From a plasmid, in sequence record NZ_CP038019.1: a DNA stretch of 39,819 nucleotides; one strand, written 5' to 3'. Position 1 is the first letter of the stretch; every line of letters starts with the position of its first letter. This document shows positions 9,090-39,226 of the stretch, piece after piece. Under the pieces are notes generated by a model that was given only the letters and a program-made list of their open reading frames with translations, was not told the DNA's origin and did no database searches. The translations under genes and the position numbers were made by a program.

Positions 9090-9272
9090 ATGGATACAAC
9101 AAACGATGTAATTGCCCAGAAAGTATTGGATTTGGACGTGCCGGGCGTGGAAGTGGCATTCGATCCCGAAGAGGCCGAGGCATTGGGTGCGTTTGTGGAA
9201 ACGGCATTGGAAGAAGCCGATGCGCGCGCCTCCGTCATCGATTTGGCCGAAATATCGGCTGAGGAGGCATAA
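9090..9272 (+). CDS. Small acidic protein, 60 aa, at the RP4 TraD position
   Basis: ORF with Asp/Glu/Ala-rich sequence whose stop overlaps the RBS GAGGAGG of the next gene. Assignment is by position only. Confidence 0.35.
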   Translation: MDTTNDVIAQKVLDLDVPGVEVAFDPEEAEALGAFVETALEEADARASVIDLAEISAEEA

Positions 9273-9273
9273 C

Positions 9274-12237
9274 ATGACGGCCAAAAAACCGTTCTACCAA
9301 CAAGTAGCCGATAAACTGATCGAACAGTTGCAACAAGGAACCGCTCCCTGGCAAAAGCCGTGGGATGGTGAAGGTATGCCAGACCACATGCCCCACAATA
9401 CGATTACCGGTCGCCGTTATCGCGGCATCAATAATCTGTGGTTGCTGGCACAACAACGGCAAGATCCACGTTGGATGACATACAAACAGGCTGCCGCAAT
9501 CGGTGCCCAGGTGCGTAAAGGCGAAAAGGGCACGGTCATTGAGTATTGGAAGTTTACTGAAGAAATCAACAAGACCGATGAGCAAGGCCGCGAAATCATT
9601 GGTGCAGACGGCAAACCGGAAAAACAGACGGTGCAGCTGGAGCGACCCAAAGTATTTCATGCCGTGGTGTTCAATGCCGAACAAATCGACAATCTGCCGC
9701 CATTGGAAATATCGCCGCTGGCTTGGAATCCGGACGAACGGGCAGAAACCATCCTGCGCAATTCCGGTGCTTTGATCCAGCATCGCGCCGGTGACCGAGC
9801 ATTTTATTCGCTCAGAACCGACAGCATCACCCTGCCCCTGCGTGAGCAATTCGCTGATGCGGGGCATTACTATGCCGTTGCCCTGCATGAATTAGGCCAT
9901 TGGACCGGGCATGAGACCCGGCTAAATCGTGATATGTCCCATCCGTTCGGCAGCGAAGGTTATGCCCGGGAAGAATTGCGGGCAGAAATCGCATCTTTGA
10001 TGCTGAGCCAGGACTTGGGCGTTTCTTTCCATCCCAAACAACATGCCAGCTATGTAGACAGTTGGATTAAAGCGTTACAAGATGATCCGATGGAAATCAT
10101 GCGGGCCGCTGCTGATGCGGAAAAAATACATGCTTATGTTATGGAACTGGCCCAGATGCAGACAGTTGAGCAGCAGCAGGAGGAGAGTATGGGGCAAACC
10201 CAGCAGAACATAGATGAAGCCAGTCTGGATGCGGAACGGCAGGCTCTCCAGGCTGTTCAAGATGGATCCATCGCTGAATCGGTCGACTCATTGGTCAAAG
10301 AGCACCGTGTATCAGATCTCAAACAATTAGATGCCATCGTGGCCACGATAGAAGAGAGTGGTCGGCAAGGTGCTTTTTGGCAGCGGCATCAGCCGCCGGC
10401 AGACGAAGCAGCTTTTTTGGTTAAGTTGGTTGAAGCCAGAACGGTCTTGGATGATGCTGTGCACCAGATGGCAGCCGAGGTCGAGTCGGTGGCCGAACAG
10501 CTGCAACCGTTCTTGCCGCCGCAATCGGATGACGAGACAGTCAAAATCGTATCTGATGAAAAACGCTATGTACAAATCCCGTATGCGGACAAAAATGAAG
10601 CCAAAGCCCTGGGTGCCCGTTGGGATAAGGAGAAGAAATCCTGGTATATCCCCCCTGGCGTTAATCAAGCACCATTTGAAAAATGGTTGAACAGCCCGGT
10701 CAATCAGGCACAAACGGTTAGTACCACGGAACCGGCCGCCGACAAAATTCTGATTGATGTCCCGTACCGTGAAAAAAATGATGCACGCGCCCTAGGTGCC
10801 CGTTGGGATAAAGAACAGAAATCCTGGTACATCCCGGCTGGCACCAATGCCGCCCTGTTTGCCCGCTGGATGCAGGCGAAACCGGAGGTTGTTGCAGAAG
10901 AAGCGGCTCCCGATTCAATGCCGCAAGATGCGGCGGTCGAGCAGCAAGCAGCTGCGGTGCAGCAAGAACGGCAGGCAATCCGGCAGCAACAGGGTGACCA
11001 AACGCTTGAACGGGTGTATTTGGCCGTACCGTATGCCGAACGCGGTGCAGCCAAGGAACAAGGTGCCCGCTGGGATAAGGCCAACAAGTCTTGGTACATC
11101 ACCAGCGATCATCCCAATTTATCGGCCGTTGCCAAATGGCTGCCGGAAAACCAAGCGCTTCAGAGCGAACCGGCGATGTCGCCGCAAGAAGAGTTTGCCG
11201 ATAAGTTGCGTGAATTGGGCTGCGTGGTGGAGAAGGGGCATCCGTTCATGGACGGGCAAAAGCACCGCATTACCACGGTTGGCGATAAAGCCGGAGAGAA
11301 ATCCGGCTTCTACATCGCTTATCTGGATGGGCATCCGGCCGGTTATGTGAAGAATAACCGGACCGGCCAAGAAGAGCGTTGGAAAGCCAAAGGTCATAGT
11401 TTATCGCCGGCAGAAAAAGCTAAACTGGCTGCCGAAAGTGCCAGCAAACTTCAACAGCGCGAAGAACAAAAGCGGCAGGCGCAAGAGGCGGCGGTTGAGC
11501 GCATCAAACACTATATGCGCGGTTATCAACCGGTGTCGGAACCAACCCCTTATTTACAGACGAAAGGCATCCAACCGCAACCGGGTATTTTTACCGACCG
11601 TACCGGCCAGAAAACCTATATCCCGGTTTATAACATCGAGGGCGAATTGCGTTCGATGCAGTATATCCAACCGGACGGCACCAAACGTTTCGCCAAGGAC
11701 AGCCAACAGGAGGGCGGTTTGCACGTCGTGGGCGCCCGCGACCTACAAACCGCCAGTACCATCGTGTTGGCCGAGGGCTACGCCACCGCCGCCACTATTA
11801 ACGAAGCCACGGACGAGACCGTGGCCTGTGTCGCCGCGTTTAATTCCGGTAACCTGCCGTTGGTGGCCGCCGAATTAAGCCGCCGCTATCCGGAAAAACA
11901 ATTTTTGGTTGCCGGGGATGATGATTTGGCGGTGCAGGCCAAACAAGGGCGCAACCCCGGACGGGAAAAAGCCATGGAAGCAGCGGCCGTGTTGAACTGC
12001 CCGGCGGTGTTGCCGGTTTTCGCCCCCGGCGAACAATCGGCTGATCAAAAAGCGTTCACCGATTTCAACGATTTGGCACAGAAATCGGCGTTTGGCCGTG
12101 AAGGCGTGGCCAAACAAATCGGTGAAAAAATCCGTGCTCAGGCTGTTACCCAAACGGCTCGGCACGACCGGAAGCCGCCTCAGCCAGAACGGGAGCAAGC
12201 CGTAGCAGTTAAAAAACGCAGTGGTCCGCGTCGTTAG
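9274..12237 (+). CDS. traC: TraC-like multidomain protein: an N-terminal ArdC-like ssDNA-binding and zincin domain, three tandem WYIP repeats, and a C-terminal Toprim DNA primase
   Basis: RBS GAGGAGG, then ATG at 9274. The first 54 codons of the ORF-track start at 9112 look like read-through junk. An HEXXH-type motif is present (ALHELGHWTGHE). There are three copies of the repeat PY(A/R)(D/E)KN(D/E)A(K/R)ALGARWDK(E/A)(K/Q)KSWYI. The Toprim segment reads VLAEGYATAATINEATDETV...FLVAGDDD. Confidence 0.8.
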   Translation: MTAKKPFYQQVADKLIEQLQQGTAPWQKPWDGEGMPDHMPHNTITGRRYRGINNLWLLAQQRQDPRWMTYKQAAAIGAQVRKGEKGTVIEYWKFTEEINKTDEQGREIIGADGKPEKQTVQLERPKVFHAVVFNAEQIDNLPPLEISPLAWNPDERAETILRNSGALIQHRAGDRAFYSLRTDSITLPLREQFADAGHYYAVALHELGHWTGHETRLNRDMSHPFGSEGYAREELRAEIASLMLSQDLGVSFHPKQHASYVDSWIKALQDDPMEIMRAAADAEKIHAYVMELAQMQTVEQQQEESMGQTQQNIDEASLDAERQALQAVQDGSIAESVDSLVKEHRVSDLKQLDAIVATIEESGRQGAFWQRHQPPADEAAFLVKLVEARTVLDDAVHQMAAEVESVAEQLQPFLPPQSDDETVKIVSDEKRYVQIPYADKNEAKALGARWDKEKKSWYIPPGVNQAPFEKWLNSPVNQAQTVSTTEPAADKILIDVPYREKNDARALGARWDKEQKSWYIPAGTNAALFARWMQAKPEVVAEEAAPDSMPQDAAVEQQAAAVQQERQAIRQQQGDQTLERVYLAVPYAERGAAKEQGARWDKANKSWYITSDHPNLSAVAKWLPENQALQSEPAMSPQEEFADKLRELGCVVEKGHPFMDGQKHRITTVGDKAGEKSGFYIAYLDGHPAGYVKNNRTGQEERWKAKGHSLSPAEKAKLAAESASKLQQREEQKRQAQEAAVERIKHYMRGYQPVSEPTPYLQTKGIQPQPGIFTDRTGQKTYIPVYNIEGELRSMQYIQPDGTKRFAKDSQQEGGLHVVGARDLQTASTIVLAEGYATAATINEATDETVACVAAFNSGNLPLVAAELSRRYPEKQFLVAGDDDLAVQAKQGRNPGREKAMEAAAVLNCPAVLPVFAPGEQSADQKAFTDFNDLAQKSAFGREGVAKQIGEKIRAQAVTQTARHDRKPPQPEREQAVAVKKRSGPRR
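10570..11145 (+). repeat. Three imperfect tandem repeats inside traC, each about 120 nt and about 230 nt apart
   Basis: ggtgcccg(t/c)tgggataa(g/a)...tcctggta(t/c)atccc recurs three times at the nucleotide level. The protein repeats are IPYADKNEAKALGARWDKEKKSWYIP, VPYREKNDARALGARWDKEQKSWYIP and VPYAERGAAKEQGARWDKANKSWYIT. Confidence 0.8.
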
Positions 12238-15404: not shown

Positions 15405-15629
15405 ATGAATACAATTAAACCTACTGGTCGTGATGATACCATTAAGATGATAAAAGAAGCTTGTGAGAAAAACCGTCGGATGATGGAAGACAAGGAGTAC
15501 TGCAAGAAAATAGAGGCTGAGTTGCATTACACTGTGGATTCTCCAGCAGTACAAAAGTTGCGTGAAGAGTTAAAAGTATTGAGAGGTCAGAGAGAACAAC
15601 AGGAGGTGGCTGCCGATGGTGGCGCTTAA
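15405..15629 (+). CDS. Epsilon-like antitoxin, 74 aa, translationally coupled to the zeta toxin gene
   Basis: Small helical acidic and basic protein. Its stop overlaps the zeta start by 14 nt. Confidence 0.5.
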   Translation: MNTIKPTGRDDTIKMIKEACEKNRRMMEDKEYCKKIEAELHYTVDSPAVQKLREELKVLRGQREQQEVAADGGA

Positions 15630-16821
15630 CTCCGAAATTAAAGAAAGAGATTTTTCAAATTCACCAGAACTGGCAGAAGTTCAAAGAGAAGCTATTGACC
15701 AGGCTAGCCGTTATACTGGTGAAATGCTTGAAAGATACAATCAGCATCCAGATACTTCCGATGGTCGCTATATTTGTGCGGACACCTTTAAAGAACTTTT
15801 TGCAGTATTTGAGAATAAAGATGATCGAGCCAAGGTCAACAATGCAATTCATAACTCGGCTGCCGTTTTATCCGCCACACAGTTTGATGAAATATTGAAA
15901 CGGGAAGAACCAGACAAGAGTCAAGCTATTTTTGTTACGGGGATTCCTGGGTCGGGTAAGACTACAACAGTAAAAAATATGATGATGCGGGAGAATACAA
16001 AGTTACTCTTTGAAGGACAGCTTGCACGGCCGCAACCTGCTTTCCATAAGATTGAGCAATGCTTGGGAAAAGGGTTGGAGGTTACTGTTGTGGCAGTCAG
16101 TATGACAGCAGAACGGGCTTTAGATAATACGTATAGGCGATTTAATGAATACGGGAGGGGTGCAAGCATTGGCATCATGGCTGATATTCAAGCCAATTTA
16201 CCCAATGGTCTTAGACAAATTCATGAAAGATTTGGCAATGCAGTCAAAATTGTTGGTATCAACCAAGATAAGAATAGCGAGTTTCTTGATAGGTTCGATG
16301 ATGTTCTCAACATGCTTTCCTTGGGGTCTCAAGACCAGATATTAGGTAGGTTGGCTGGAAAGATTCAGAGTGACTTGGTAACCGGGAAGATTGATGTATC
16401 CTGTTTCAATCAAGCCAAAGGCAGCATGAATTTAGAAAGCATTTTTGCTGAGAAAGAGTACGTGCAACAGAGGGTAGTAGTTAATTCTAAAAGTGTTGTG
16501 TTGGAAGCTAAACTGGCAAGCGGTATTTGGACGAAACTCAAAATAATACCAGTACAAGGGATGAAGGGCGGTGTTTATCCGTTGGGAACGGCCAAACCGG
16601 CCGCAGCCGACCAATCTTATGAAGGCGAAATTGTCTATAAGGATAATGCGTCGATTTTCCAGCAAACCAAGCAAGGGTTGGTTCGGCATCAGAACACCGA
16701 GCAGCTGGCCGGTCAGGTACGGATAGGGCAGCACTATGCCATCGGCAACGGCCAAGCCAAGGCAGTCAGCCTGACAGCCAGCCGGTCGATGAAGCAGACA
16801 CATGGTCGTCGGCTTCGATAG
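15616..16821 (+). CDS. Zeta-toxin family P-loop kinase (UNAG kinase type) fused to a shared C-terminal domain of about 115 aa
   Basis: Walker A IFVTGIPGSGKTTTVKN. Total 401 aa. The C-terminal 285-401 segment (VVNSKSVVLEAKL...GMKGGVYPLGTAK...RSMKQTHGRRLR) is homologous to the C-termini of the ORFs at 17188 and 38167. Confidence 0.8.
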   Translation: MVALNSEIKERDFSNSPELAEVQREAIDQASRYTGEMLERYNQHPDTSDGRYICADTFKELFAVFENKDDRAKVNNAIHNSAAVLSATQFDEILKREEPDKSQAIFVTGIPGSGKTTTVKNMMMRENTKLLFEGQLARPQPAFHKIEQCLGKGLEVTVVAVSMTAERALDNTYRRFNEYGRGASIGIMADIQANLPNGLRQIHERFGNAVKIVGINQDKNSEFLDRFDDVLNMLSLGSQDQILGRLAGKIQSDLVTGKIDVSCFNQAKGSMNLESIFAEKEYVQQRVVVNSKSVVLEAKLASGIWTKLKIIPVQGMKGGVYPLGTAKPAAADQSYEGEIVYKDNASIFQQTKQGLVRHQNTEQLAGQVRIGQHYAIGNGQAKAVSLTASRSMKQTHGRRLR

Positions 16822-16852
16822 GCAGGGCGGGATATAATAAAACAGCATAAAG

Positions 16853-17179
16853 ATGAAAGGAAGGGTGATGGCTGAATTAACTCACGAACAGAAACAGAAA
16901 TTGTTGGCCGAATTTGAACGGCCCAAGGTGGTGAAATACAGCCCGGAAGAGATCCGGTCTGGGAAAGAAATCTATATTCAGGTGGTGGCCAGCTGTGCAT
17001 TGGAGGGGCATGCCCCAGATGATTTTGGCAAAGTGGTAACGATGGAACGTATTCGTGGTGAATTAACTCCGGAAAAAGAGCTACAAATTTTATTACAGCA
17101 AGATCCGGTTGAGACAGAACGAATCCAAGCGAAAGTCGCACGTTTGCAAGAGTTGGGATTATCGTGGAAGGATTTATAG
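16853..17179 (+). CDS. Class I Fic antitoxin (VbhA-like). The probable true start is at 16868.
   Basis: Inhibitory (S/T)xxxE(G/N) motif present as SCALEG. It lies immediately upstream of a Fic gene. Confidence 0.55.
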   Translation: MKGRVMAELTHEQKQKLLAEFERPKVVKYSPEEIRSGKEIYIQVVASCALEGHAPDDFGKVVTMERIRGELTPEKELQILLQQDPVETERIQAKVARLQELGLSWKDL

Positions 17180-17187
17180 GATAAATC

Positions 17188-18261
17188 ATGGGGCTTTCTA
17201 ACGAAGAGCAAATGGAGTTCAACCGGGTTGTTACTAGTAATTTACAAATGGCAGTTGTCGAGTTAAGAGCAACCCAAGATTTTTCTTTCCATGGTTTGAA
17301 GCAACTTCATGATAAAACATTCTTTCCTAGCCCTAGTTTGCCGGAGAGAGTCCGGGTGGAAATGAATAATTTTTATCAAATGCGCCCGGCAAGGGAGGAT
17401 TGGGGTGGGAAGTTGCGCTTTAATATCACTCCGTATCCGTATGAGACGTATTATTCGCCGTTGGAAAAAGCCGATTATCAACAGGTGGAACGGGTCATTG
17501 GGCTGGCGAAATATGCCAATACCAAAGACTTACCATTTGAGGAGAAAGTGCAACGGTTGGCTCAAGTTTATGCCGAGGTCGACTATCTGCATGCCTTTTG
17601 GGATGGCAACAGCCGGGTGAATCGGGCCTTTGTCCAAGAGTTGGCGGCCAGTTCCGGAGTTGAACTCGATTTCAGTAAAGTCAGTGAAAAGGAGATGTAT
17701 ATCGCCCGGGATAAATCTCTGGCCGAACTGAATCTAAGCCGGCGTCCCGAGCAGTTGAAAAACCTGACGCATATGAATCCCAACCCGTACGTTAGCTTGC
17801 AGGGATCGCTGGAGGAGTTGAATCAGTATTACCCCAAGATAGATTTGCCTTCGGTATTTCGGCAGATTGCGGTGGAGCGGGCAATTCGCCAAGAGCTCGA
17901 TTACAGCCAGGTGCGGGCGGTGGTCAATTCATCTGGTGTTGTGCTGCAACAGAAAACCGGCGATGCCTGGCAGGATGTCGAGCGAATACCGGCAGAAGGG
18001 ATGAAGGCCGGTATTTATCCATTGGGCACGGCCAAGTCGGCTATTGCCGGCCAATCCTATGAGGGTGAGGTGGTTTATCGGGACAACGCTTCGATTTTTC
18101 AAAAGACCAAGCAAGGGCTGATTCGGCATCAGAATACCGAGCAGTTGGCCGTCCAGGTAAGGGTAGGGCAGCGCTATAGCATCGGTAAGGGGCAAGCCAA
18201 GGCAGCCAGCCAGACCGTCAGTCGGTCGATGAAACAGACGCATAGTCGTTGGATTCGATAA
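17188..18261 (+). CDS. Fic/Doc-family protein with a variant active-site motif, plus the shared C-terminal domain
   Basis: Motif HAFWDGNSRVNR against canonical HxFx(D/E)GNGRxxR. The C-terminal 233-357 segment is about 80% nucleotide-identical to the zeta C-terminus (GMKAGIYPLGTAK...RSMKQTHSRWIR). Confidence 0.75.
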   Translation: MGLSNEEQMEFNRVVTSNLQMAVVELRATQDFSFHGLKQLHDKTFFPSPSLPERVRVEMNNFYQMRPAREDWGGKLRFNITPYPYETYYSPLEKADYQQVERVIGLAKYANTKDLPFEEKVQRLAQVYAEVDYLHAFWDGNSRVNRAFVQELAASSGVELDFSKVSEKEMYIARDKSLAELNLSRRPEQLKNLTHMNPNPYVSLQGSLEELNQYYPKIDLPSVFRQIAVERAIRQELDYSQVRAVVNSSGVVLQQKTGDAWQDVERIPAEGMKAGIYPLGTAKSAIAGQSYEGEVVYRDNASIFQKTKQGLIRHQNTEQLAVQVRVGQRYSIGKGQAKAASQTVSRSMKQTHSRWIR

Positions 18262-19026: not shown

Positions 19027-19061
19027 AGACCCAACACTATGTATTGTTGGGTCTTTTTCTT
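19027..19061. terminator. Bidirectional rho-independent terminator between the yafQ-like gene and trbN
   Basis: agacccaaca ctatgtat tgttgggtct then TTTTTCTT, with T-rich flanks on both strands. Confidence 0.6.
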
Positions 19062-19701
19062 ACTTTACTATTGGATTGCTCGATCGCCAAACCACCGAAC
19101 TGGTGGTTCTCGGGTCAGTATAACGGGCAGTGGCAGTTCGCTCCCTGACCACTGTCGCCGGTTGTAGGCTCGGCCGTCTTTCTTGGCGTCTAACCGGTTC
19201 GTGTCGAATCGGCCGGTTGCGTTCGGCCGCGACCGCTTGGGTGGGAACGGTTGAATTGGGTAAGTTGGCCGTTTGGATGCCGTGCGCTTGAAACCAGTTG
19301 CGCCACATCTCGGCATGCCGGATCAATTTTTGCCGGTATCGGCTGTTGAATCGTGGGGTGTAGGAATGGTAATTGGCCACCCGGGTCCATAAGTCCCCCC
19401 GGTCGCGCACGATGTGCCGCTTGATGCGCCAAGCGGCCAAGAAGTAGGAATAGCAGCCCGGCCGAGCCGCATCTTGCGGCGTGATACCGTATTTGGCCAA
19501 TGTGGCCAAATACGCGGTATTCAACTGCATGGCACCGACATCGTGGGTGCCGTTTTTGTTGCGTACCCACTGGCCAGGCCGGCCGTTTTCATTGCTTGCT
19601 ACGGCCAACAGAATCAACGGATCCAGCTGGTATTGGGCGGCGGCCTGCACCGAACAAACCGCCCGTTCCTGCTGTACTGCCGGCGGCAAATCTATTGCCA
19701 T
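19060..19701 (-). CDS. trbN: TrbN-like lytic transglycosylase (VirB1-like)
   Basis: SLT-domain segments AVASNENG...HDVGAMQLN. Last gene of the trb operon. Confidence 0.8.
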   Translation of the reverse strand: MAIDLPPAVQQERAVCSVQAAAQYQLDPLILLAVASNENGRPGQWVRNKNGTHDVGAMQLNTAYLATLAKYGITPQDAARPGCYSYFLAAWRIKRHIVRDRGDLWTRVANYHSYTPRFNSRYRQKLIRHAEMWRNWFQAHGIQTANLPNSTVPTQAVAAERNRPIRHEPVRRQERRPSLQPATVVRERTATARYTDPRTTSSVVWRSSNPIVK

Positions 19702-20387
19702 TACCGATCAACCCAACGGCCGCCGTTGCGCTCATCCCCGACATAATGCACCCGCTCTCCGGTCGTCGTCCATCGGTGCTGATGGTAGGCTTGGCAATAG
19801 CTGGGTTTGGCGTTTCGGATATAAGGCACCTTGACGTCCTGCCAGCCACCATCTCTTTGTGTGCCGACCCAAACGCGTTTGGTGTAGGTGGCACGGTTGA
19901 TCTGGTTCAGGGCAGCCGCATTGCAGCGGCCGGCGCCGTTGGCGATGGCGTCAATCAACTCAGGCATATTGTCCTCGTTACTGGAGGGACACAAGCGCAG
20001 GAAATCTTTCCTGGCGTTCAAGGTTTGGTGCAGCTTGCGGTGTCGGATAGAGAAATAGCGGTTCAGCGATGGGGCGCACTCCGTCGGCCGCTTGCCGGAG
20101 GACAGGCACAAGATCGCTTCACAAGCCAGTTTGGGGTCGCCGGTCAGTACGCTTTCAGCGGACGGCCGGTTGTTTTGCCGACCGTTGCGGTTACCGCCGG
20201 TTTGCCCGGTGTTAGCCGGTGCTGCCGTGCTGTTTTGTTGGTTGCCGTTGTTACGGTTATAACTGCGGCCGTCGGTGGCGGTACGACCGCTGGAAGCCGA
20301 GTTCAGGGCATCATTCAGGTTTTGGCCGAAACTGAGGCCGGTGCAGGCCAAGGCGGCCAGCATGATCGCAAGTTGGCGTGTTTTCAT
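19701..20387 (-). CDS. trbM: TrbM-like periplasmic conjugal transfer protein
   Basis: Signal peptide, an N/Q/G-rich low-complexity stretch and a Cys-rich C-terminal domain. Position is between trbL and trbN. Confidence 0.55.
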   Translation of the reverse strand: MKTRQLAIMLAALACTGLSFGQNLNDALNSASSGRTATDGRSYNRNNGNQQNSTAAPANTGQTGGNRNGRQNNRPSAESVLTGDPKLACEAILCLSSGKRPTECAPSLNRYFSIRHRKLHQTLNARKDFLRLCPSSNEDNMPELIDAIANGAGRCNAAALNQINRATYTKRVWVGTQRDGGWQDVKVPYIRNAKPSYCQAYHQHRWTTTGERVHYVGDERNGGRWVDR

Positions 20388-20402
20388 AGGTTCTCCCTAA
20401 GA

Positions 20403-22016
20403 TTATTGCTGCTGTTGTTGCTGCGCCCGGTTGCGGGCGCTGACTTCTTTTAATGCTTGGCGTACTAAACCGACTCCGCCCAGCAGCATCAGTGCGGCAT
20501 TGAGCATGGAGCCAACCACGCTTTTTGCCGAAAACCCGATGCCTTCATTACCGCTGCCGCCGGCCAGGCTGCCCACCATTGGCGGTACCTTGGTGCATAA
20601 AATCGCCAGCGTCAGGCCGACTAGCAACAATACCGTATAGTGGAATAGCATAAAGCCTTCCGTTTGACTCACCATGCTGGTAATGATGTTTTTACCAATT
20701 GCCATCATCAACATCATGGTCATCAGTTGCAACCCGATATTCAGCAGCTGTCGATAATAAGAGATAGCCATGTCGGAGGTCCAACGTCCGCCGCCGAAGC
20801 CCAGTACGAATAGTCCGGCAGTCATATATATCCAGGCAGCGATATACAAAAGGGCGTAGTTGATTGCAATGAGTACCAAAGCAAAGAAAGTCACCACCAT
20901 CATCAGGATGGCGACAAACAATTCCGGATTGAGCCAAGAGGCTGCATTGGTAATATCTATTAGGTCGGGTATTTTGACTGCTCGGATCGAGTTGGCGGCC
21001 GCAGCACGGTTCCACATATCAAACAATGATTGTACGAAGCCGGCCGTTTTTTGTGTTTCACCGCCGGTACCGGCCTCAACCCCCAGTTGGTTGAACGAAT
21101 TGATGATGGATTCGCTGATGGCAAAACCGTTTTGCAGCAGCCACCAGAAAAAGCCGATGAACAAAATCAGGCGGATGGTTTCGGCGAAGAAGGCGGCAAT
21201 ATCGTCTTTACGGAATACCAGATCAATGCCGGTATAAACCACGCTGATGGCGGCCAGTGACCAAAACAACCAGCTGGCGGCAGTAGTCAGGGCGGTTACC
21301 CATTTGCCGGTGCCATCCCGGAAGGTATCCATTATCTGATCCAATACGCTGGCATCCACTGGGTTGTTGCCGGGGTCAAGTTTTTCCGCATCCGAGGCGC
21401 TTTCCAGATCTCCGTCTTCGATTGGTTGGATAGGTGTGCCACGTCCCTTGGCCATCCTGTCGGCCATATCGCAGATCGAGGTTTTATTGATGTCGCGGAA
21501 ACCGCCGCAACGGCCGGAATTCAGCATTTTTTGACAGTTGCCGACCCCCAGTTGCACACAGGCTAAAACCAGCTCTCCTGTTACCGGTCGGCCGTCAAAG
21601 GTTTTCATTTGCATCAATCGTCGCACCACGGGATTGCGCAACCCGTCCGTAGTCAATTTTGACCAGGCATTAAGCTGGGTTTGCAGACTGGCGAGTTTGT
21701 ATTGCTCCGGCGACATATGGGCATAAGCGCGGATATTGCGGTGGTTCAATTGCAATACACCGAAGCAGCAGGAGCCGTTATAGAGGTGCAGATAGCCGCC
21801 ACTTTCTACATTGATGGCTAGATTGGCCACGGCGTTGGCATTCTGTTTTAACCAAGGGCTGGCATAGGGTGAATTGCGAACAGCATCAACAATTTGTTGA
21901 TGTGTGGCACGTTGCTGGGAAAAGTAGGTTACTTTTCCCATCGCTGTTGTCGTCGACAACAGGAACAACAGGCACAAACCGATCAGTCGACACCAGATTG
22001 CCGTTAGCCGTTGCAT
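20403..22016 (-). CDS. trbL: TrbL/VirB6-family inner-membrane protein with an N-terminal periplasmic domain of about 200 aa and a poly-Q C-terminus
   Basis: Polytopic VirB6-like core FAETIRLILFIGFFWWLLQNGF... The protein ends in ...RAQQQQQQ. Confidence 0.8.
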   Translation of the reverse strand: MQRLTAIWCRLIGLCLLFLLSTTTAMGKVTYFSQQRATHQQIVDAVRNSPYASPWLKQNANAVANLAINVESGGYLHLYNGSCCFGVLQLNHRNIRAYAHMSPEQYKLASLQTQLNAWSKLTTDGLRNPVVRRLMQMKTFDGRPVTGELVLACVQLGVGNCQKMLNSGRCGGFRDINKTSICDMADRMAKGRGTPIQPIEDGDLESASDAEKLDPGNNPVDASVLDQIMDTFRDGTGKWVTALTTAASWLFWSLAAISVVYTGIDLVFRKDDIAAFFAETIRLILFIGFFWWLLQNGFAISESIINSFNQLGVEAGTGGETQKTAGFVQSLFDMWNRAAAANSIRAVKIPDLIDITNAASWLNPELFVAILMMVVTFFALVLIAINYALLYIAAWIYMTAGLFVLGFGGGRWTSDMAISYYRQLLNIGLQLMTMMLMMAIGKNIITSMVSQTEGFMLFHYTVLLLVGLTLAILCTKVPPMVGSLAGGSGNEGIGFSAKSVVGSMLNAALMLLGGVGLVRQALKEVSARNRAQQQQQQ

Positions 22017-22023
22017 GATGGGC

Positions 22024-22584
22024 TTACCTTAGCTGAATAGAGCGGTCGCATTCGCGTGTATGGCGACCATACATGATGGTGCGGAAACGTATGGTTTTGC
22101 TGGCGGCATCGTAGGCGTATTCGGTATGGTGCCGGGCCAGATTACCTGGTTCGTCATCCAGATTCAGGTAGCAGTAATTGGGCAGGTCGCGCACCGTGGT
22201 GCGGCCGCTGGCTTTATGGCGTTGTACCACCCGCATTGTGCAGGTCGAGTAGGTAGGCTGAGCCCTTGTTGTGCCGTCGCCGTTGGGAGGAGCTAGGCAG
22301 GTGCCGCCGGGTATATCGCTATTATCCAGCATGGTGAAAATATAGTGGTTCTCGGTGGTATCGACTTCGGTCAGCAGCGCAAACGCCACATCACGCGGCC
22401 GCAGGCGGTTGCCCCACACTTCGCGCACGGTTTGCGCCTGTTGCGGGGTGCCGGTTTTTCGGTAGAAATTAAAGGTGATTTCCGGCATCTGTTTCCAAGC
22501 AGTCCGTCCCGGGGCATTTTGTGCCGCTGCCGGCAGTGTGCAGACAACCAATCCGGCTGTCAGTAGTAAGGCAAATGATTTCAT
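22024..22584 (-). CDS. Secreted or periplasmic hypothetical protein, 186 aa, between the two trbL paralogues
   Basis: Signal peptide MKSFALLLTAGLVVCTLPAAAQ. Four Cys residues. No recognised family. It contains a DUS-core 10-mer. Confidence 0.4.
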   Translation of the reverse strand: MKSFALLLTAGLVVCTLPAAAQNAPGRTAWKQMPEITFNFYRKTGTPQQAQTVREVWGNRLRPRDVAFALLTEVDTTENHYIFTMLDNSDIPGGTCLAPPNGDGTTRAQPTYSTCTMRVVQRHKASGRTTVRDLPNYCYLNLDDEPGNLARHHTEYAYDAASKTIRFRTIMYGRHTRECDRSIQLR

Positions 22585-22658
22585 CAGCTACTCCTTATCA
22601 GGGTTGGGGTAGCCAAGGAGCCAGGCGGTTACCACCCGTATTCCCCTTGGCGCCAAAT

Positions 22659-24311
22659 CTATGCTTCCGGATCGTGATCCGGATTCCGTTCACGTTGTTG
22701 GCGGCGCTCCCGCTCTTCACGGATTTGGTTGGCCAGCTTCCCGCCGCGGGTTTGATTCATCAGGATCCGGCCGGCGGCGGTACTGATGGCTTGAATGGTA
22801 CTCATGGCAATGGTTTTGCTGGCCCCTTCCGCCGCAGCGGTATCGTTTTGCCCGGCGGCGGCCCGGCCGCCGGCATCGCCGCCTTTTTGCCCGCCACTGT
22901 CGGCTTTGCCGCCGGAGGCTTCCGGCGAACTGATAGTGTTGCCGCCACTGGTGTTGCTGCCGGCAACGTTGGTGGCTTGGGCGGTCGCTGCGGTGTTGCG
23001 GTTGCCTTCTGCGATCAGCGGCTGGCCGTCTTGGCTGGCGCTGTTGTCGGCCGAACCGGAATCACTCAGGGCTTCCATCGCACTGCTCTTGTGGTGGCTG
23101 TCGCCGGTTTCGCTTTGCGTACCGCCGCCTTGGTTTTTACCACCTTGGCTGACACTGTCTTTTTTCAGTTCGCGTACGGCTTTGGCAAAACCGGCCAGTT
23201 CCAAGGCCGCGCCCGTCATGGCTGCCGTGGCCGCCATCACCGCGCCGCCACCGAAGGCACCGACCCCGTTGCTGCCGCTGCCGCCGGCAATCGAGCCGAC
23301 CATTTGCGGGACTTTGTTGGATAAGATGAATAGGGTGATGGCCACCAGCAGCAGCACCACGAATTTGAAGAGTGCCATAGATTGGACGGCCTGACTGGCT
23401 TCTCCCATTACATTTTTAGCAATACCAATCATCAGGATCATGGTCATCAGTTGCAACCCGATATTCAGCAGCTGTTTGAAATAGGCCACCGCCATGTCCG
23501 AAGTCCAGCGCGAACCGCCGAAGCCCAATACGAATATGCCGGCGTACAAATACAGCCAGACCGAGATTTTGAGTAACAGGAAATTGATTGCGATCAGTGC
23601 GATGAATACTGTGGTCAAGACCAGCATAAGGATGCCGGCCAGTAGCTGAGCGCCGCTTAATTGGCTGGTACTTTTGACAGTATCTGCCCACAGTTTAAAG
23701 GCCAGCAACATCACGTCCGAAGGGGTGATGGGGCCGGTTTGCCCGGCCGATTCGCCTAATTGCACAAAAGAGTCGATGATGGCGGTACCGATGTCGATAC
23801 CGTTTTGCAGCAGCCACAGAAAAAAACCGAAAAACAGGATAAAGCGTACCGTTTCAGCAAAGAAATCGGCAATATCGCCCTTGCGGAACACCATCTGGAT
23901 TCCGGTCCAAGTGAGGCTGATGGCGCCCAAGGTAAAAAACAGCCAAGTGGCGCGTTGTACCAAGACATCGCTCCATTTTTGTGCTTTATTCTTGAATTCC
24001 CTTTCAATCATGGAGAATTTTTGGGCATCACTGTCTACCGGCATCGATTCTTCGGCGACAGTGTCATTTTTCGGCGGGTTAATTAGCACCGCTTCCCCGC
24101 CGACGGACACGATTCTGGGCTCGGAGGCAGCCGATGGCTGTTCGACGGTTTGCTGTTTTGGCTCGGATGCCGCTGTCGGTTGGGGGTCCCCCCAAGCGCC
24201 GGCGGCAAACAGCAGCAGTCCCAGCAATAGTAGACAAAATGGCAACCAGCGTTGTATCCGGTGCGTCCAGGTTAGTGATGTCGAGACAGGCAGCGTGGCG
24301 GTAGCCATCAC
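22659..24311 (-). CDS. Second TrbL/VirB6 paralogue with a long Gly/Ser/Ala-rich, charged C-terminal extension
   Basis: FAETVRFILFFGFFLWLLQNGIDIGTAIIDSFVQLG aligns with FAETIRLILFIGFFWWLLQNGFAISESIINSFNQLG of trbL. C-terminus is ...GGSGSNGVGAFGGG...REERERRQQRERNPDHDPEA. Confidence 0.75.
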   Translation of the reverse strand: MMATATLPVSTSLTWTHRIQRWLPFCLLLLGLLLFAAGAWGDPQPTAASEPKQQTVEQPSAASEPRIVSVGGEAVLINPPKNDTVAEESMPVDSDAQKFSMIEREFKNKAQKWSDVLVQRATWLFFTLGAISLTWTGIQMVFRKGDIADFFAETVRFILFFGFFLWLLQNGIDIGTAIIDSFVQLGESAGQTGPITPSDVMLLAFKLWADTVKSTSQLSGAQLLAGILMLVLTTVFIALIAINFLLLKISVWLYLYAGIFVLGFGGSRWTSDMAVAYFKQLLNIGLQLMTMILMIGIAKNVMGEASQAVQSMALFKFVVLLLVAITLFILSNKVPQMVGSIAGGSGSNGVGAFGGGAVMAATAAMTGAALELAGFAKAVRELKKDSVSQGGKNQGGGTQSETGDSHHKSSAMEALSDSGSADNSASQDGQPLIAEGNRNTAATAQATNVAGSNTSGGNTISSPEASGGKADSGGQKGGDAGGRAAAGQNDTAAAEGASKTIAMSTIQAISTAAGRILMNQTRGGKLANQIREERERRQQRERNPDHDPEA

Positions 24312-24342
24312 GAACTCCTTAATTCATGCAACATATTGATGA

Positions 24343-25074
24343 CTAATGGCTCCAGAACAGTTTGGAAGAGGCTGCTTCCCGCGCCTGTTGGTCGATGAGC
24401 GCTTGTCGTGCGACAGCTTGGGCCTGCATATTCATCAACATCACTTGGCGCAGTTGCATGGTCTGATGTATTTGGGCGCTACGGAGTTGGTTGCCGTACT
24501 GGATCGCTTCCATCTGGCCTTTGGCCGATTGCGAAGCGCGTTGCAGCCGTTCCAAGGTCACCAGATCCTGTTGGATCGCGGTCAGTTGCTGGTCGATACC
24601 CAGCAGCAGGCTGTCGTTGGTCATTTTTTGCAGGGTGGAGATTTGGTCGCGGTTACGTTCCAGTTGTGCCCGTTCCGCTGCCGTGCAGCCGCGCAGGCGA
24701 TAACAAGGCGAGCCCTTATAATATTCGGAAGACTGATAGCGGTTCAGTAGCTCGCGGATCTCCCCCAATTGTTGCCGTTTGGCTCGTAACTCCGCCATCG
24801 TTTGATTCAACCCGTCAATGGTTTGGCGGGTGCGGTCCCAAATATAGGCTGCCGGTGCCGCGGTATTGCGCAATTGGTTTTCGTACTGCTTCAGTTGCAG
24901 CCGGTATTGCTCGATCTGTTTTAACAGGGACTGTACGTCTTGCAGGGCAGAGATGGTGCTTTGGGTCACGTTGGCCCCGTCAAAGGTCGGGATGCCGCCG
25001 GCTTGGGCGGGCAGGGCGGATAAGCCCAGTGCGGCGATTGTGATGGCCACAGCAGATAATTTGGAAAGTTTCAT
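24343..25074 (-). CDS. trbJ: TrbJ/VirB5-like protein
   Basis: Signal peptide, then coiled-coil-rich sequence. Position is between trbI and trbL. Confidence 0.7.
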   Translation of the reverse strand: MKLSKLSAVAITIAALGLSALPAQAGGIPTFDGANVTQSTISALQDVQSLLKQIEQYRLQLKQYENQLRNTAAPAAYIWDRTRQTIDGLNQTMAELRAKRQQLGEIRELLNRYQSSEYYKGSPCYRLRGCTAAERAQLERNRDQISTLQKMTNDSLLLGIDQQLTAIQQDLVTLERLQRASQSAKGQMEAIQYGNQLRSAQIHQTMQLRQVMLMNMQAQAVARQALIDQQAREAASSKLFWSH

Positions 25075-25129
25075 GGATTCAACTCCGTTCTAAAGTTGGT
25101 ATTGGGTAAAACGGGACGTTATATTCAGA

Positions 25130-25462
25130 TTATTCTGCTTTTTTATATCTACCCATGTCGGGAGAAACCATTTCACCAGTGGTTGGGTCAATGGTAAATT
25201 GGAAGGTTCCACTGATTATTAGTGTGTCATCCAATAATTTGCCTGCTACTGTTGCTGTGTGTGAAGCAGTATGCGAAGGGTTACTCTCCGTAATTTTAAC
25301 AATAAAGGCATCTTGGGAATTTTCATTCCGTTTAATTTCATATTGAAAGCGGTTGTCTGAACTTTGCCATTTCCCTACAAATTGTTCTCCCGGCTTGTCG
25401 CCGCAACCGGTCAGCAGCAGGGTCAGACCCAATAACAGTATGGATAACAGTTTTCTCATCAT
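25130..25462 (-). CDS. Small lipoprotein, 110 aa; candidate entry-exclusion or accessory lipoprotein
   Basis: Lipobox LLLTGCGDK. Lies between trbI and trbJ. Confidence 0.45.
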   Translation of the reverse strand: MMRKLLSILLLGLTLLLTGCGDKPGEQFVGKWQSSDNRFQYEIKRNENSQDAFIVKITESNPSHTASHTATVAGKLLDDTLIISGTFQFTIDPTTGEMVSPDMGRYKKAE

Positions 25463-25480
25463 AAGCTCCTTATTACTTGG

Positions 25481-26827
25481 TTAGAACAGGATGTCTTTGG
25501 TCACTACTACGTTGAAGCGGTAGCCGGGACGGATTTCCAGTGTCGGCGACAGGTTCAGGTTTTTTTGCAGCGTTTGGGTAATGGCCTGGCCGAAGGTGGA
25601 GGCCAGGCTGGTGGACAGTTCGCTGCTGAAGGTGGTGGTGTTATTGTTGTTGCCGTGCCGGTCACGATCGGTGCCGTAAGATATGCCGGCACCAATTACC
25701 GACAGCAGCAGGGCATTGCCCCAAATCCGCATGTAGTGGTTATTGACCTTATCGTGGAAGCCGGGGTAGCCGGCGCCGTTGGAGCCGGGCATGGAGCCGA
25801 TGTCTAAGGAACGGCCGTCCGGGAAAATCAGCCGGTTCCAGGCGATAAACAGGCGTTTCTGACCGTATGACACATTGTTGTCATACGAGCCGATCAGTTT
25901 GGTCCCTTGCGGAATCAGCAGGCGGCGGTCGGTACGGCTGTCATACACGTTTTGCGATACCTGCGCCATGACCTGGCCGGGCAGGTCGGAGTTGATGCCG
26001 CTGGTGGCGATGGCCGGAATGACCGATCCGGCCATCAAGGCGTTGGCATGGGCCCGTTCCGGTCGGTTGGCCAGCTGCCAACGGTTATCACTGGCGGCAG
26101 TATTGTTGTTGGCCACGGCCGGCTGTGGCGGGATGTTCAGATTGACTGGCGCATTGCCGCCGATCCCGCCGACTCCGTTACCGCCACCCCCCAATGCTTG
26201 GTTCAGCTGGTTGTAGGTATTCAGGGCGGCGGCTTGGTCGTTACCGTTGTTGAGGGCGTTGTCTGCCTCCTGCTGTACCTGTTGGATCTGTGCCAGTATC
26301 TCGTCGCGGTTGGTGGGTCCCGCCTGCGCCGCGCCGGCAAAGTTACTGCTGGGGGTGCCGGCGGTGGCTTGGACCTGGGTGGGCGATTTGATGGCGGCGG
26401 CCAGCATCTGCTGCCGGTTCTGCTGTGCTTCGTCGGGCAGATCGGGCGCCATCGGCGCCTGCGGTAGCGGCAGGGTCATCGGGGCATCGTCCGGCAAGGT
26501 TGGGTTGGGCGGCAGGCTGTCTAAATCCAGTGCCGGCAATTCCGGCGGGGCGGCACCGATCACACCGTTGGCCGGGGCATCGGCCAGGATGTTCTGCGCC
26601 AGTTTGCTGGAGTCGCCTTCGCCCTTGACTTGTTCGGCCAGCTGCCGGGAGGCTTGGCCTTTATTAATCGCGATTAAGGCAATAATCAGTGCGAAACCGA
26701 CCAGGATGCCGCCGACAATGTACACTGGCAGGCGGTTGAGCCGGCGCACGGACGGCTGCCGTCCGGCGGTGTTGGGTGCGGCGGAAGGGGAGGAGTGGAC
26801 GTTGAGCAGATCGTTGTCGTTGGCCAT
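25481..26827 (-). CDS. trbI: TrbI/VirB10-like protein
   Basis: N-terminal cytoplasmic segment plus transmembrane helix, a Pro-rich linker, and a C-terminal beta-domain (GSMPGSNGAGYPGF...). Confidence 0.8.
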   Translation of the reverse strand: MANDNDLLNVHSSPSAAPNTAGRQPSVRRLNRLPVYIVGGILVGFALIIALIAINKGQASRQLAEQVKGEGDSSKLAQNILADAPANGVIGAAPPELPALDLDSLPPNPTLPDDAPMTLPLPQAPMAPDLPDEAQQNRQQMLAAAIKSPTQVQATAGTPSSNFAGAAQAGPTNRDEILAQIQQVQQEADNALNNGNDQAAALNTYNQLNQALGGGGNGVGGIGGNAPVNLNIPPQPAVANNNTAASDNRWQLANRPERAHANALMAGSVIPAIATSGINSDLPGQVMAQVSQNVYDSRTDRRLLIPQGTKLIGSYDNNVSYGQKRLFIAWNRLIFPDGRSLDIGSMPGSNGAGYPGFHDKVNNHYMRIWGNALLLSVIGAGISYGTDRDRHGNNNNTTTFSSELSTSLASTFGQAITQTLQKNLNLSPTLEIRPGYRFNVVVTKDILF

Positions 26828-26836
26828 AACAGACTC

Positions 26837-27244
26837 CTATTTACGGGACCAGCTACCGGCGGGGGCGATGTTGCCATTGCTATTGACCAGGTAACCACGG
26901 GTATAGGTGGTGCGGCCGTCCACGGTGTAGCTGACCCGGTACAGTTCGCCGGCCACCTGATCGACTTTATCCAGTACCACGGACAGTCGGTTGGCGGCGG
27001 TGTTGCCAGGCACGCTGTCGGCCACCGCAAAGCCTTTTTCACGCAATGCTTGGCCGAGGTCTTTACCAAACGGATCGCCGCCGTCGAATACAAACAGGGT
27101 ATTCGCCGCCGGGTAGTCGGCACTCAGTCGGGCGGTAACATCTTGTGCGACGTAGCGTTCCAGTGCGGCGGAATGGACGTAGGAACTCATGCTGCCGCAG
27201 GCGGCCAGCATGGTGCTCGCAATAAGGGCATACAGTGTTTTCAT
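26837..27244 (-). CDS. trbH: TrbH-like lipoprotein (VirB7 analogue)
   Basis: Lipobox MLAACGS. 135 aa. Overlaps the trbG stop. Confidence 0.6.
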   Translation of the reverse strand: MKTLYALIASTMLAACGSMSSYVHSAALERYVAQDVTARLSADYPAANTLFVFDGGDPFGKDLGQALREKGFAVADSVPGNTAANRLSVVLDKVDQVAGELYRVSYTVDGRTTYTRGYLVNSNGNIAPAGSWSRK

Positions 27245-28104
27245 GGCTGTTTCCTAGTGATAACGACTTTGGATTGGTGGCGACCCACCCCGGTCAGTAA
27301 CACGGCTTTATCAAAAATGGTGTCCACGATAAAACGGTCGCCGTCGAGTCGGTAATTGACCAGAGTGTCTTCGCCGTCGCGCACGATCAACAAGGTTGGT
27401 GCTTCGCCTTGGGCCATGCTGGCCGGCATCTGGATGAAGGTACGGGTGCCGTCGTTATACACGCGCAACGGTTTCCATGACGGTGAGTCGCCGCTGATGT
27501 TGTATTCGAAGTCCAGTTTGTCGATTTGCTGGCCGGAAGGCAGTACGTTAGAGGCGTTTTTCCAGGCTGCTTCCTGGCGGGCACGTTGCAAGGCGGCCTG
27601 TTGGTCTTCAGGATAGATGAAGCCGACTGCCGGCATGAAACGGCTGCGGTGCGATTTCAGCCGCAAATGGTAGGTACGGCGGTCGGTGGCGATAAACAGG
27701 GTAGTCTGTAGGCCGACATCGAACGGTTTGACTAGAATGTGCATCTGCGGTACGCCGTCCTTACCGGAAACGGCCGGCTGGATGTCCCAGCGGGCGGTAT
27801 CGCCCGCATTGAGGCTGTTCAGTTGCTCGCCGGGTTGCAGGGCGATGTCGCATACCTGTAAAACCGCACACACGATGGAGGGGTTGGACCCCAAGGGAAA
27901 CATGAGGCGGCCTTGTTCGCCCAATCCGGGCGGGGTCGCCATGCGGCCGTCGGAGGAAAAGTCGTGCGAGTAGCGCAAACCGGTGTTTTCTTGGCGGTTA
28001 AGCGGCGGGTTCGGGACATCTTTGAAATAGTCGTCTGCCATTTTGTCGGCGAAGGCGCTGCCGGCAACGGCACTCATCAATAGTCCGAGGATGAGGTGTT
28101 TCAT
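27241..28104 (-). CDS. trbG: TrbG/VirB9-like protein
   Basis: Signal peptide. Size and position fit VirB9. C-terminal motifs VNYRLDGDRFIVD. Confidence 0.75.
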   Translation of the reverse strand: MKHLILGLLMSAVAGSAFADKMADDYFKDVPNPPLNRQENTGLRYSHDFSSDGRMATPPGLGEQGRLMFPLGSNPSIVCAVLQVCDIALQPGEQLNSLNAGDTARWDIQPAVSGKDGVPQMHILVKPFDVGLQTTLFIATDRRTYHLRLKSHRSRFMPAVGFIYPEDQQAALQRARQEAAWKNASNVLPSGQQIDKLDFEYNISGDSPSWKPLRVYNDGTRTFIQMPASMAQGEAPTLLIVRDGEDTLVNYRLDGDRFIVDTIFDKAVLLTGVGRHQSKVVITRKQP

Positions 28105-28137
28105 AGTTGGGCTTCCCTTTCGGTTCAGGTTAATTGG

Positions 28138-28845: not shown

Positions 28846-28857
28846 GGTTCTGCTCTT

Positions 28858-31709: not shown

Positions 31710-31730
31710 GCCGATGCCTCCTGTGTCGAA

Positions 31731-32126: not shown

Positions 32127-32225
32127 AGTAAAACCTTTATATTTTTATAAGTGGGGAAAATAAAGTGGAAACGCGCAGTGAAAGTTAATCATTCGGTCGG
32201 TGGTATGTTAAATGCCTCCTTGGGG

Positions 32226-39210: not shown

Positions 39211-39226
39211 ATCTTGGAGGACATCA

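Follow-up and report, generated by a model that had tools for sequence, protein, structure and literature searches.

KfrB domains at the C-termini of a zeta kinase and two Fic toxins on an IncP-1-like conjugative plasmid: a possible link to P-type conjugation

Introduction

Effectors of type IV secretion systems (T4SSs) that carry a BID or an XVIPCD domain share a common layout, in which a C-terminal module stands behind the cargo (PMC5675462, PMC8740702). On conjugative plasmids of Alphaproteobacteria, FicT and PezT (zeta) toxins are fused to BID domains, and translocation has been demonstrated for VbhT (PMC5675462); Harms et al. predicted that more toxins of toxin-antitoxin (TA) systems would prove to be substrates of conjugative T4SSs. 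For the XVIPCD of the bacteria-killing T4SS effectors of Xanthomonas type (X-Tfes), it is the folded part of the domain that binds the all-alpha domain of VirD4 (PMC8740702). In this study, we analyzed a plasmid of 39,819 nucleotides (sequence record NZ_CP038019.1; this whole stretch is referred to below as the window), which encodes a zeta-type kinase, a variant Fic protein (Fic-v), and a further Fic protein near korB, all three ending in the same C-terminal module. We report that this module is the KfrB domain, and we weigh whether it might serve docking or delivery in P-type conjugation.

A member of this family has been seen before. Rocker et al. (2018) solved the C-terminal OB fold of the gonococcal zeta toxin ng_zeta1, a five-stranded Greek-key barrel capped by a short helix (6EPG/6EPH/6EPI); the domain was given no function and was found in gonococcal zetas and one Eikenella homologue alone (PMC5923241). 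Whereas those authors made no link to KfrB, the domain is recognized here as a KfrB-family module common to Fic, AbiEii, and other proteins. The KfrB domain, its fold, and proteins of both Fic-KfrB and zeta-KfrB type are already in public records, under the NCBI name 'KfrB domain-containing protein'. Among the publications found to mention KfrB, none ties the ng_zeta1 OB domain to KfrB, and none describes a module common to several toxin families or proposes a transfer-related role. Two findings are new: zeta, Fic, and AbiEii toxins share a plasmid backbone domain, and toxin fusions are concentrated at the kfrB locus, which makes it a hot spot.

Results

Three toxins of the window share a KfrB module

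A first-pass annotation of the window had proposed that three toxins have in common a C-terminal module of about 115 amino acids (aa) followed by a basic tail. The open reading frames (ORFs) are as it described, at 15616-16821 (zeta), 17188-18261 (Fic-v), and 38167-39195 (the korB-proximal Fic protein), and all three match the Pfam family KfrB (PF18790), with E-values of 1.3e-6, 4.1e-5, and 2.3e-11, respectively. The zeta copy (28.7 bits) and the Fic copy (43.9 bits) score above the 25-bit gathering score, and the Fic-v copy, at 23.9 bits, falls marginally under this cut-off; the cluster representative of the Fic-v KfrB (P0008) matched the family profile built here with an E-value of 1e-44. 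Moreover, residues 229-331 of the Fic protein matched residues 283-389 of gonococcal Zeta_1 (PDB 6EPG/6EPH) with an E-value of 1.7e-15. The shared module is the already catalogued KfrB domain, with its fold solved in ng_zeta1.

An identity of about 80% had been claimed between the zeta and Fic-v modules at the nucleotide level. This holds in a core of 276 nucleotides (16545-16820 versus 17985-18260, 80.4%), whereas the whole module is 74.9% identical (351 aligned columns). The third copy is indeed more diverged (52.8% nucleotide identity between zeta and Fic); random windows of the plasmid gave a mean of 25% and a maximum of 34%. At the protein level, the zeta module is 68% identical to that of Fic-v and 43% identical to that of Fic. 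The tails, RSMKQTHGRRLR, RSMKQTHSRWIR, and ESRGRKSGRRI, had been read correctly, and the last 20 aa carry a net charge of +5 to +6 in all three toxins. The zeta and Fic-v modules form, together with those of zeta1 and zeta2 of the gonococcal plasmid pConj, a 'toxin-type' subgroup whose members come from more than one toxin family.

Each of the three proteins is the toxin of a TA pair: a permuted zeta UDP-sugar kinase, a variant Fic, and a VbhT-like Fic. The full-length zeta toxin matches PDB 6EPH with an E-value of 3e-173 and is 67% identical to ng_zeta1 over residues 1-398. It has the features of the ng_zeta1 subclass of epsilon/zeta systems, namely a permuted kinase with a Walker A motif (GIPGSGKT), an upstream epsilon homologue, and a C-terminal OB domain. 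For Fic-v, the probable FicA-type antitoxin is a 108-aa ORF that gave no match in Pfam and NCBIfam scans; both this ORF and the toxin are kept in Eikenella halliae. The korB-proximal Fic domain has the VbhT structures 3ZCB/3SHG as its best PDB matches (E 6e-16), and a plasmid of Xanthomonas hyacinthi has an annotated VbhA-family antitoxin at the position of its VbhA-like antitoxin. Both Fic motifs depart from HxFx(D/E)GNGRxxR, by G to S in Fic-v (HAFWDGNSRVNR) and by final R to Q in the korB-proximal protein (HPFPEGNGRSLQ), so the chemistry of both proteins may differ from standard AMPylation.

A Fic domain is fused ahead of the plasmid's kfrB orthologue in the third copy

A free-standing kfrB gene of about 115 aa lies between korB (or kfrA) and kfrC in pConj, a Yersinia plasmid, pA1, and pJP4. 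The corresponding slot of the window is occupied by the VbhA-like antitoxin gene and the Fic protein, followed by KfrC. The last 115 aa of this Fic protein are 50% identical to the KfrB of pConj, closer than to the zeta and Fic-v modules, and 36-44% identical to the KfrB of IncP-1 plasmids. The third copy is the kfrB orthologue of the plasmid; the first-pass annotation was right to include it as a carrier of the shared module and had missed this orthology. The backbone position, from korB (or kfrA) to kfrC and beside traM-traL-traK, is held by the copy at 38848-39195 only, the zeta and Fic-v copies being part of the accessory region. The KfrB (Upf54.8) of the IncP-1 plasmids R751, RK2/RP4, pJP4, and pA1 is thus like the third copy in its homologous domain, its locus, and its basic C-terminal motif; it differs in that the KfrB of the window is never free-standing, standing instead behind Fic at the kfrB locus and behind zeta or Fic in the accessory region.

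Related plasmids show other states of the same locus. A Fic-KfrB fusion is also present at the kfrB locus of the IncP-1 plasmid pMNCG080-1, and in a metagenomic contig it is a zeta toxin, not Fic, that is fused there. An unfused state is seen in X. hyacinthi (NZ_CP043477.1, 40133-41288), where VbhA and a 200-aa Fic gene are followed, after a gap of 24 bp, by KfrB. A decayed state is seen in E. coli p14EC001a (4549-5354), where a Fic remnant lies ahead of an intact KfrB; this arrangement is shared by a widespread group of IncP plasmids of E. coli and Klebsiella. Where zeta-KfrB or Fic-KfrB occupies the kfrB locus, it adjoins traM-traL-traK and the presumed oriT.

The accessory copies were also compared with those of an E. 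halliae plasmid. Relative to the window (15583-16789), that plasmid lacks almost exactly the zeta ORF, while the epsilon-like-coding sequence, the FicA-like antitoxin, and Fic-v-KfrB are kept. The 3' end of the E. halliae Fic-v KfrB is 89.7% identical to the 3' end of the zeta gene of the window, versus 80% within the window, which suggests that toxin cassettes are shuffled by recombination between the KfrB-coding repeats.

KfrB is a C-terminal partner of unrelated domains and is confined to P-type conjugative elements

A word-indexed protein search for the module found 7 relatives. An exhaustive profile (hidden Markov model, HMM) search of 1.84e9 representatives yielded 256 clusters, and architectures were taken from the best 150 of these. 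Among these 150, about 80% are stand-alone KfrB proteins, mostly of 100-135 aa, and about 30 are fusions. In all 24 fusions with a Pfam-identifiable or HExxH-type partner, the KfrB domain is C-terminal to the partner. The partners comprise Zeta (in canonical and permuted topologies), Fic, AbiEii nucleotidyltransferase, LPD7, and two HExxH-motif proteins, one of which gave a non-significant hint of Peptidase_M91. Several further fusions have N-terminal regions without an identified domain, and a few proteins have two KfrB domains in tandem, among them zeta toxins (P0037, P0128). The most conserved residues of the module are N, W, G, Y, G, Q, H, and G, that is, a polar/aromatic cluster plus glycines.

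In PLSDB, 524 plasmids carry a KfrB domain, of which 430 are typed as conjugative, and the taxon profile of KfrB nearly equals that of the IncP-type TraI-like_C domain (418 plasmids). The KfrB family is confined to P-type (Trb/TraG/TraI) conjugative elements. Some of its genes lie next to, or within, the transfer operons: one trb operon ends with a KfrB-domain gene, on a plasmid where neither kfrC nor korB is annotated, and in the metagenome-assembled genome GCA_040384225.1 (contig 1719-9698) two different KfrB fusions flank traG-traF-traC. On another metagenomic contig (L022, 1193-5342), tandem cassettes were observed, in each of which an HExxH-KfrB gene is accompanied by a small ORF and by another of about 230 aa.

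Two other roles for the domain were considered and rejected. It co-occurs with four unrelated types of antitoxin, and mostly with none, which speaks against antitoxin binding; and ng_epsilon1/zeta1 is a 1:1 heterodimer in solution, which speaks against oligomerization.

The module is an OB-like barrel and not a BID domain

A high-confidence predicted structure of the module has nine strands and no helix of 4 or more residues, and its fold agrees with that of the solved member, an OB-like five-stranded barrel. (A single-sequence AlphaFold2 model of the full Fic-KfrB protein reached a pLDDT of 42.8 and was unusable.) The first-pass annotation had likened the module to the BID-type domain of Bartonella. 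A BID domain is a four-helix bundle of about 120 aa and the KfrB module is a beta-barrel; homology to BID is therefore excluded at the level of fold. That the module might nonetheless be a diverged homologue of the Bartonella or rhizobial BID has next to no likelihood: it draws on analogy alone, in that a C-terminal domain with a basic tail stands behind a Fic domain whose best PDB match is VbhT, whereas the NCBIfam VbhT model aligns to the korB-proximal Fic protein over the FIC region alone (positions 14-180 of 419), and the module is all-beta, with nine strands in the predicted structure and a five-stranded barrel in the solved one.

The analogy to Fic-BID proteins nevertheless has substance, except that the shared domain would correspond to the OB element and not to BID. 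Outside the KfrB family, the closest fold is the OB fold of the FIC-OB-BID (Bep) effectors of Bartonella. This is a likeness in structure only, with 10-16% sequence identity, and an HMM search of the PDB with KfrB for Bep OB folds found ng_zeta1 as the sole match. That the nearest fold belongs to T4SS effectors lends circumstantial support to a role in docking or translocation. VbhT, the Beps, and the PezT-BID protein of a Chelativorans plasmid resemble the proteins described here in that FicT or zeta/PezT toxins on conjugative plasmids are preceded by an antitoxin and end in a non-catalytic C-terminal module with a positively charged tail; in both Fic proteins of the window, the N-terminal FIC domain is accompanied by a probable upstream antitoxin of FicA or VbhA type. 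They differ in that the BAS/BID part that follows the OB fold is absent here, so that the proteins end 10-12 residues past the barrel and the charged tail comes directly after it without any four-helix bundle; they differ also in that translocation has been shown for VbhT. The XVIPCD offers a comparable case, being a conserved C-terminal region of about 100-120 aa (a folded part plus a flexible tail) that stands behind toxic domains of many unrelated kinds, which have cognate immunity genes. Unlike it, KfrB is all-beta in the predicted model, has a tail rich in Arg rather than Gln, and belongs to conjugative P-type systems.

The C-terminal tail resembles the end of the TraI relaxase

When family members were aligned from their C-termini, a motif tied to fixed positions emerged, and so more than mere positive charge: R/K(-5) G/S(-4) R/L(-3) S(-2) R(-1). 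KfrB members end in K or R in 56% of cases, and their tails carry a charge of +2.6 to +3 per 20 aa, versus about 0 to 0.6 elsewhere. The motif is still at the extreme end in proteins where 40-100 aa follow the barrel (P0140, P0131, P0147, P0069). Its codons are CGN and TCC, and no other gene overlaps them, so that its conservation is at the protein level.

The tail consensus resembles the KGRSR end of the TraI relaxase, which overlaps the ribosome-binding site of traG. KGRSR-COOH is exact in 80 of the 120 TraI-like_C clusters (K 80%, G 94%, R 95%, S 83%, R 94%). With a profile of the last six KfrB residues, TraI was the top-ranking non-KfrB ORF in pConj, pA1, and the X. hyacinthi plasmid; among the non-KfrB ORFs of the window, TraC came first and TraI next, TraC being surpassed in the window by the Fic-KfrB protein alone. 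TraI of RP4 is a demonstrated protein substrate of the RP4 T4SS (PMC5675462).

The window is a complete IncP-1-like conjugative plasmid

With its 39.8 kb, the window represents an entire circular conjugative plasmid of IncP-1-like type. A contig of E. halliae NML130454 (NZ_LXSQ01000013.1, 39.45 kb) is 93-95% identical to it, with an alignment that is unbroken across the window ends, and was the sole match in a search for related loci with a 6-sequence KfrB alignment. A megablast search of PLSDB with the toxin region returned zero matches. Gene order is as in pConj: traM (across the window junction), traL, traK, and the presumed oriT gap are followed by traJ, traI, traG, traF, traE, and a traC-like gene, then by the accessory region, the trb T4SS genes, trbA, ssb, trfA, and finally incC, korB, and kfrC; kfrA is absent. 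As the first-pass annotation had stated, the plasmid encodes a complete Trb/VirB-like T4SS with a coupling protein: homologues of VirB2, 3, 4, 6, 8, 9, 10, and 11 were found together with a VirD4-type TraG. Pfam families in the trb region are T2SSE (VirB11-type ATPase), TrbC/VirB2, VirB3, TrbE/VirB4, VirB8, CagX/VirB9, TrbI/VirB10, two TrbL/VirB6, and SLT. The two TrbL/VirB6-family genes are distinct and lie at 20403-22016 and 22659-24311 on the minus strand (537 and 550 aa).

A palindrome resembling the KorB operator, TTTAGC(C/G)GCTAAA, is present in 5 perfect copies, versus 0.03 expected (Table 1). A KorB-operator-like site also lies 3' of kfrB in seven relatives (pConj, the Yersinia plasmid, pA1, the X. 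hyacinthi plasmid, pJP4, a Xylella plasmid, and contig L023). A RelB/YafQ TA pair (18345-18620 and 18699-18989) lies directly downstream of Fic-v, which brings the TA-like modules of the plasmid to four, three of them clustered at 15.4-19.0 kb. The C-terminus of the TraC-like protein (KKRSGPRR) resembles the GRKSGRRI end of Fic-KfrB.

Table 1. Positions of toxin, antitoxin, transfer, and backbone features in the window.
Feature	Position	Strand	Basis and remarks
TraI relaxase (MOBP)	2300..4408	+	Pfam Relaxase, TraI_middle, LPD7, TraI-like_C; terminal ...GKGRNK at 4391-4405
TraG, VirD4-type coupling protein, candidate receptor	4371..6320	+	PF02534, E 9e-130
TraC-like polyvalent protein	9112..12237	+	ArdC-N, zincin metallopeptidase, DUF5710 x3, Toprim
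Epsilon-like antitoxin of zeta toxin	15405..15629	+	45% identity to gonococcal epsilon_1; overlaps zeta start codon
Zeta-type kinase domain, permuted ng_zeta1 subclass	15616..16464	+	PF06414; 74.5% identity to ng_zeta1 residues 1-283
KfrB-type OB barrel and basic tail of zeta toxin	16465..16821	+	PF18790; tail at 16783-16818
Probable FicA-type antitoxin of Fic-v	16853..17179	+	108-aa ORF directly upstream of toxin; S-C-A-L-E-G fits the (S/T)xxxE(G/N) inhibitory motif
Variant Fic (Fic-v) domain	17188..17907	+	PF02661; weak VbhT/Fic NCBIfam matches; active-site motif HAFWDGNSRVNR
KfrB-type OB barrel and basic tail of Fic-v	17908..18261	+	PF18790; tail at 18223-18258
Trb mating-pair-formation (T4SS) genes, trbN to trbB	19060..33224	-	Pfam
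VbhA-like antitoxin	37933..38157	+	PF18495 VbhA, E 0.0012, 19.2 bits, under the 25.9-bit gathering score
FicT/VbhT-like Fic domain, korB-proximal	38167..38847	+	PF02661; motif HPFPEGNGRSLQ
KfrB domain proper, kfrB orthologue fused to Fic	38848..39195	+	PF18790; tail at 39160-39192
KorB-operator-like palindromes	2273-2285, 7697-7709, 33748-33760, 36174-36186, 39198-39210	.	Sequence match
KorB-operator-like palindrome TTTAGCCGCTAAA	39198..39210	.	2 nucleotides past the Fic-KfrB stop codon, ahead of kfrC
KfrC	39214..39771	+	NCBIfam NF042916 IncP_KfrC_dom, E 1.7e-47

Discussion

We propose, tentatively, that the KfrB module serves in docking or delivery and does so specifically in P-type (IncP-like Trb/TraG/TraI) conjugation systems, a possibility that we would place somewhat short of probable. 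In this proposal, the module comprises an OB-like barrel of about 100 aa and a disordered Arg-rich C-terminus, located downstream of each toxin. The barrel and its free R-x-R/L-x-R-COOH end would be recognized by the transfer apparatus, most likely by TraG, and fused cargo as well as stand-alone KfrB would be brought to the T4SS and, during mating, exported into recipient cells. Protection of donors would fall to the upstream antitoxins (epsilon-like, FicA-like, and VbhA-like), which, when expressed from the incoming plasmid, would protect transconjugants also; the toxins would then act as classical addiction modules and, in addition, would penalize any recipient failing to establish the plasmid. 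We infer recognition by TraG and translocation because the modular layout is effector-like and the free C-terminal Arg motif relaxase-like, because the family is restricted to P-type conjugation systems with some of its genes inside tra/trb operons, and because the FicT-BID and PezT-BID fusions, VbhT being translocated, provide a precedent. A stronger version appears rather doubtful to us. It would hold that the KfrB barrel and its R-G-R-S-R-type end add a third, hitherto unrecognized class to BID and XVIPCD as bipartite signals for T4SS recruitment, with the TraI end as its model and the Bep OB fold as its relic, and that P-type plasmids use it to inject TA toxins (zeta, Fic, AbiEii), peptidase-like effectors, and KfrB itself.

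Several points weigh against delivery. The binding of TraG and the export of KfrB cargo are predictions made from sequence. What is known of KfrB from experiment comes from IncP-1 plasmids, where the protein reportedly interacts with KfrA and KfrC and aids plasmid persistence, and where inactivation of kfrB is said to destabilize R751. Four in five or so of the family members analyzed are cargo-free. The trb-operon subfamily and some fusions do not have a strongly basic end. In the Beps, the signal consists of BID plus tail, and the OB fold has no assigned role. Two-hybrid analysis of KfrC and TraG was negative for both RK2 and R751 (PMC8124265); the KfrC of RA3 has a C-terminal domain that binds VirD4. 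In RP4, kfrB lies in the zygotically induced leading region (PMC7314908), so that KfrB would be made in recipients anyway. Moreover, zeta toxins of pConj that carry the KfrB domain stabilize the plasmid in a trbC-deleted background (PMC10212123), and ng_zeta1/epsilon1 is a functional TA pair in E. coli (PMC5923241). The earlier suggestion that the toxins serve in delivery rather than as simple addiction modules does not stand in that form; whatever the role of the module, they also behave as conventional addiction systems.

The likeness between the tails of KfrB and TraI calls for similar caution. In IncP-1-like plasmids, the 3' codons of traI (AAA GGA AGG AGT AGA TGA) double as the Shine-Dalgarno sequence and overlapping ATG of traG, so that part of the invariance of KGRSR may be a constraint at the DNA level. 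Counter to this, the codons for R(-3) are both AGR and CGN, and in pConj traG does not overlap traI, yet TraI ends in KGRHR. In the window TraI ends in KGRNK, the annotated start of traG there being provisional. No homology between TraI-like_C and KfrB was detected by hhalign (single-sequence, profile-profile, or C-terminally trimmed global comparison), and TraI-like_C has no solved structure. The parallel behind this comparison is VbhT, which took over its signal from its relaxase.

Other explanations of the module have to be set against delivery through the T4SS. KfrB could instead tether the toxins to a Kfr scaffold, binding KfrC and, where present, KfrA, so that they would be ordinary post-segregational killers located on a partition or positioning complex and never exported. 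KfrC is encoded just downstream in the window, and the adjacency of kfrB and kfrC is kept in the window, pConj, the Yersinia plasmid, pA1, pJP4, the X. hyacinthi plasmid, and probably contig L023. A tether would also suit the stabilization by pConj toxins without a functional T4SS, and it would suit the charges of the two partners, stand-alone KfrB being basic and the N-terminal half of the KfrC of the window rich in Asp/Glu (as judged by eye). However, KfrB-domain genes are also found where neither kfrC nor korB is annotated, closing a trb operon in one case and flanking traG in another; there is no obvious reason to tether peptidase-like, AbiEii, Fic, and zeta domains to a partition scaffold; the position of the motif at the free C-terminus would go unexplained; and ng_zeta1/epsilon1 is a simple heterodimer, toxic in E. 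coli without other plasmid proteins. On balance, we consider a tether unlikely, though it deserves attention. A role in nucleic-acid binding seems more improbable still. Here the OB barrel and the RGR-type tail would bind single-stranded DNA (for example, the transferred strand), plasmid DNA, or RNA, and the enzymes would thereby be localized or possibly travel with the transferred strand. These are basic proteins with RGR or RSR tails, and toxins of FicT type target DNA gyrase and topoisomerase IV (PMC5675462). On the other hand, the conserved residues of the module amount to no obvious signature of single-stranded DNA binding, Rocker et al. reported no nucleic-acid binding for the domain (PMC5923241), and the substrates of zeta toxins are soluble UDP-sugars, so that localization to DNA would be no help to them.

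The module could also be an evolutionary by-product without function in the toxins, if TA cassettes inserted beside kfrB, became fused to it through loss of a stop codon, and the repeat then spread between toxin genes by recombination. The existence of both the unfused (X. hyacinthi) and the decayed (p14EC001a) states fits such a history, as does E. halliae, where the absence of the zeta gene and the 89.7% identity at the 3' end indicate recombination between repeats. The KfrB part of the zeta toxin, moreover, is nearer to that of the co-resident Fic-v (68%) than to that of ng_zeta1 (52%), while its kinase part is 74.5% identical to that of ng_zeta1. Against this, many independent fusions, which involve at least four catalytic families unrelated to one another, have kept both domain and tail intact, and some of these toxins lie far from a kfrB locus; the domain is kept in all gonococcal zeta toxins; and the tail motif is conserved at the protein level. 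A functionless by-product is, in our judgment, the least probable of these three explanations.

Antibiotic resistance travels to a major extent on IncP-type plasmids and on the pConj of gonococci. KfrB, although part of the plasmid backbone, has gone more than 20 years without an assigned mechanism, and the solving of the ng_zeta1 structure brought no explanation of its C-terminal domain. If docking or export by the KfrB module proves true, conjugation would be coupled to toxin delivery, which would affect plasmid establishment, host range, and the therapeutic use of zeta toxin; the module would be a compact and portable tag for protein delivery through RP4-type systems, and the VbhT paradigm would extend beyond the Alphaproteobacteria. 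If export proves wrong, the shared KfrB domain in toxins and the fusion hot spot at kfrB would still be useful for annotation.

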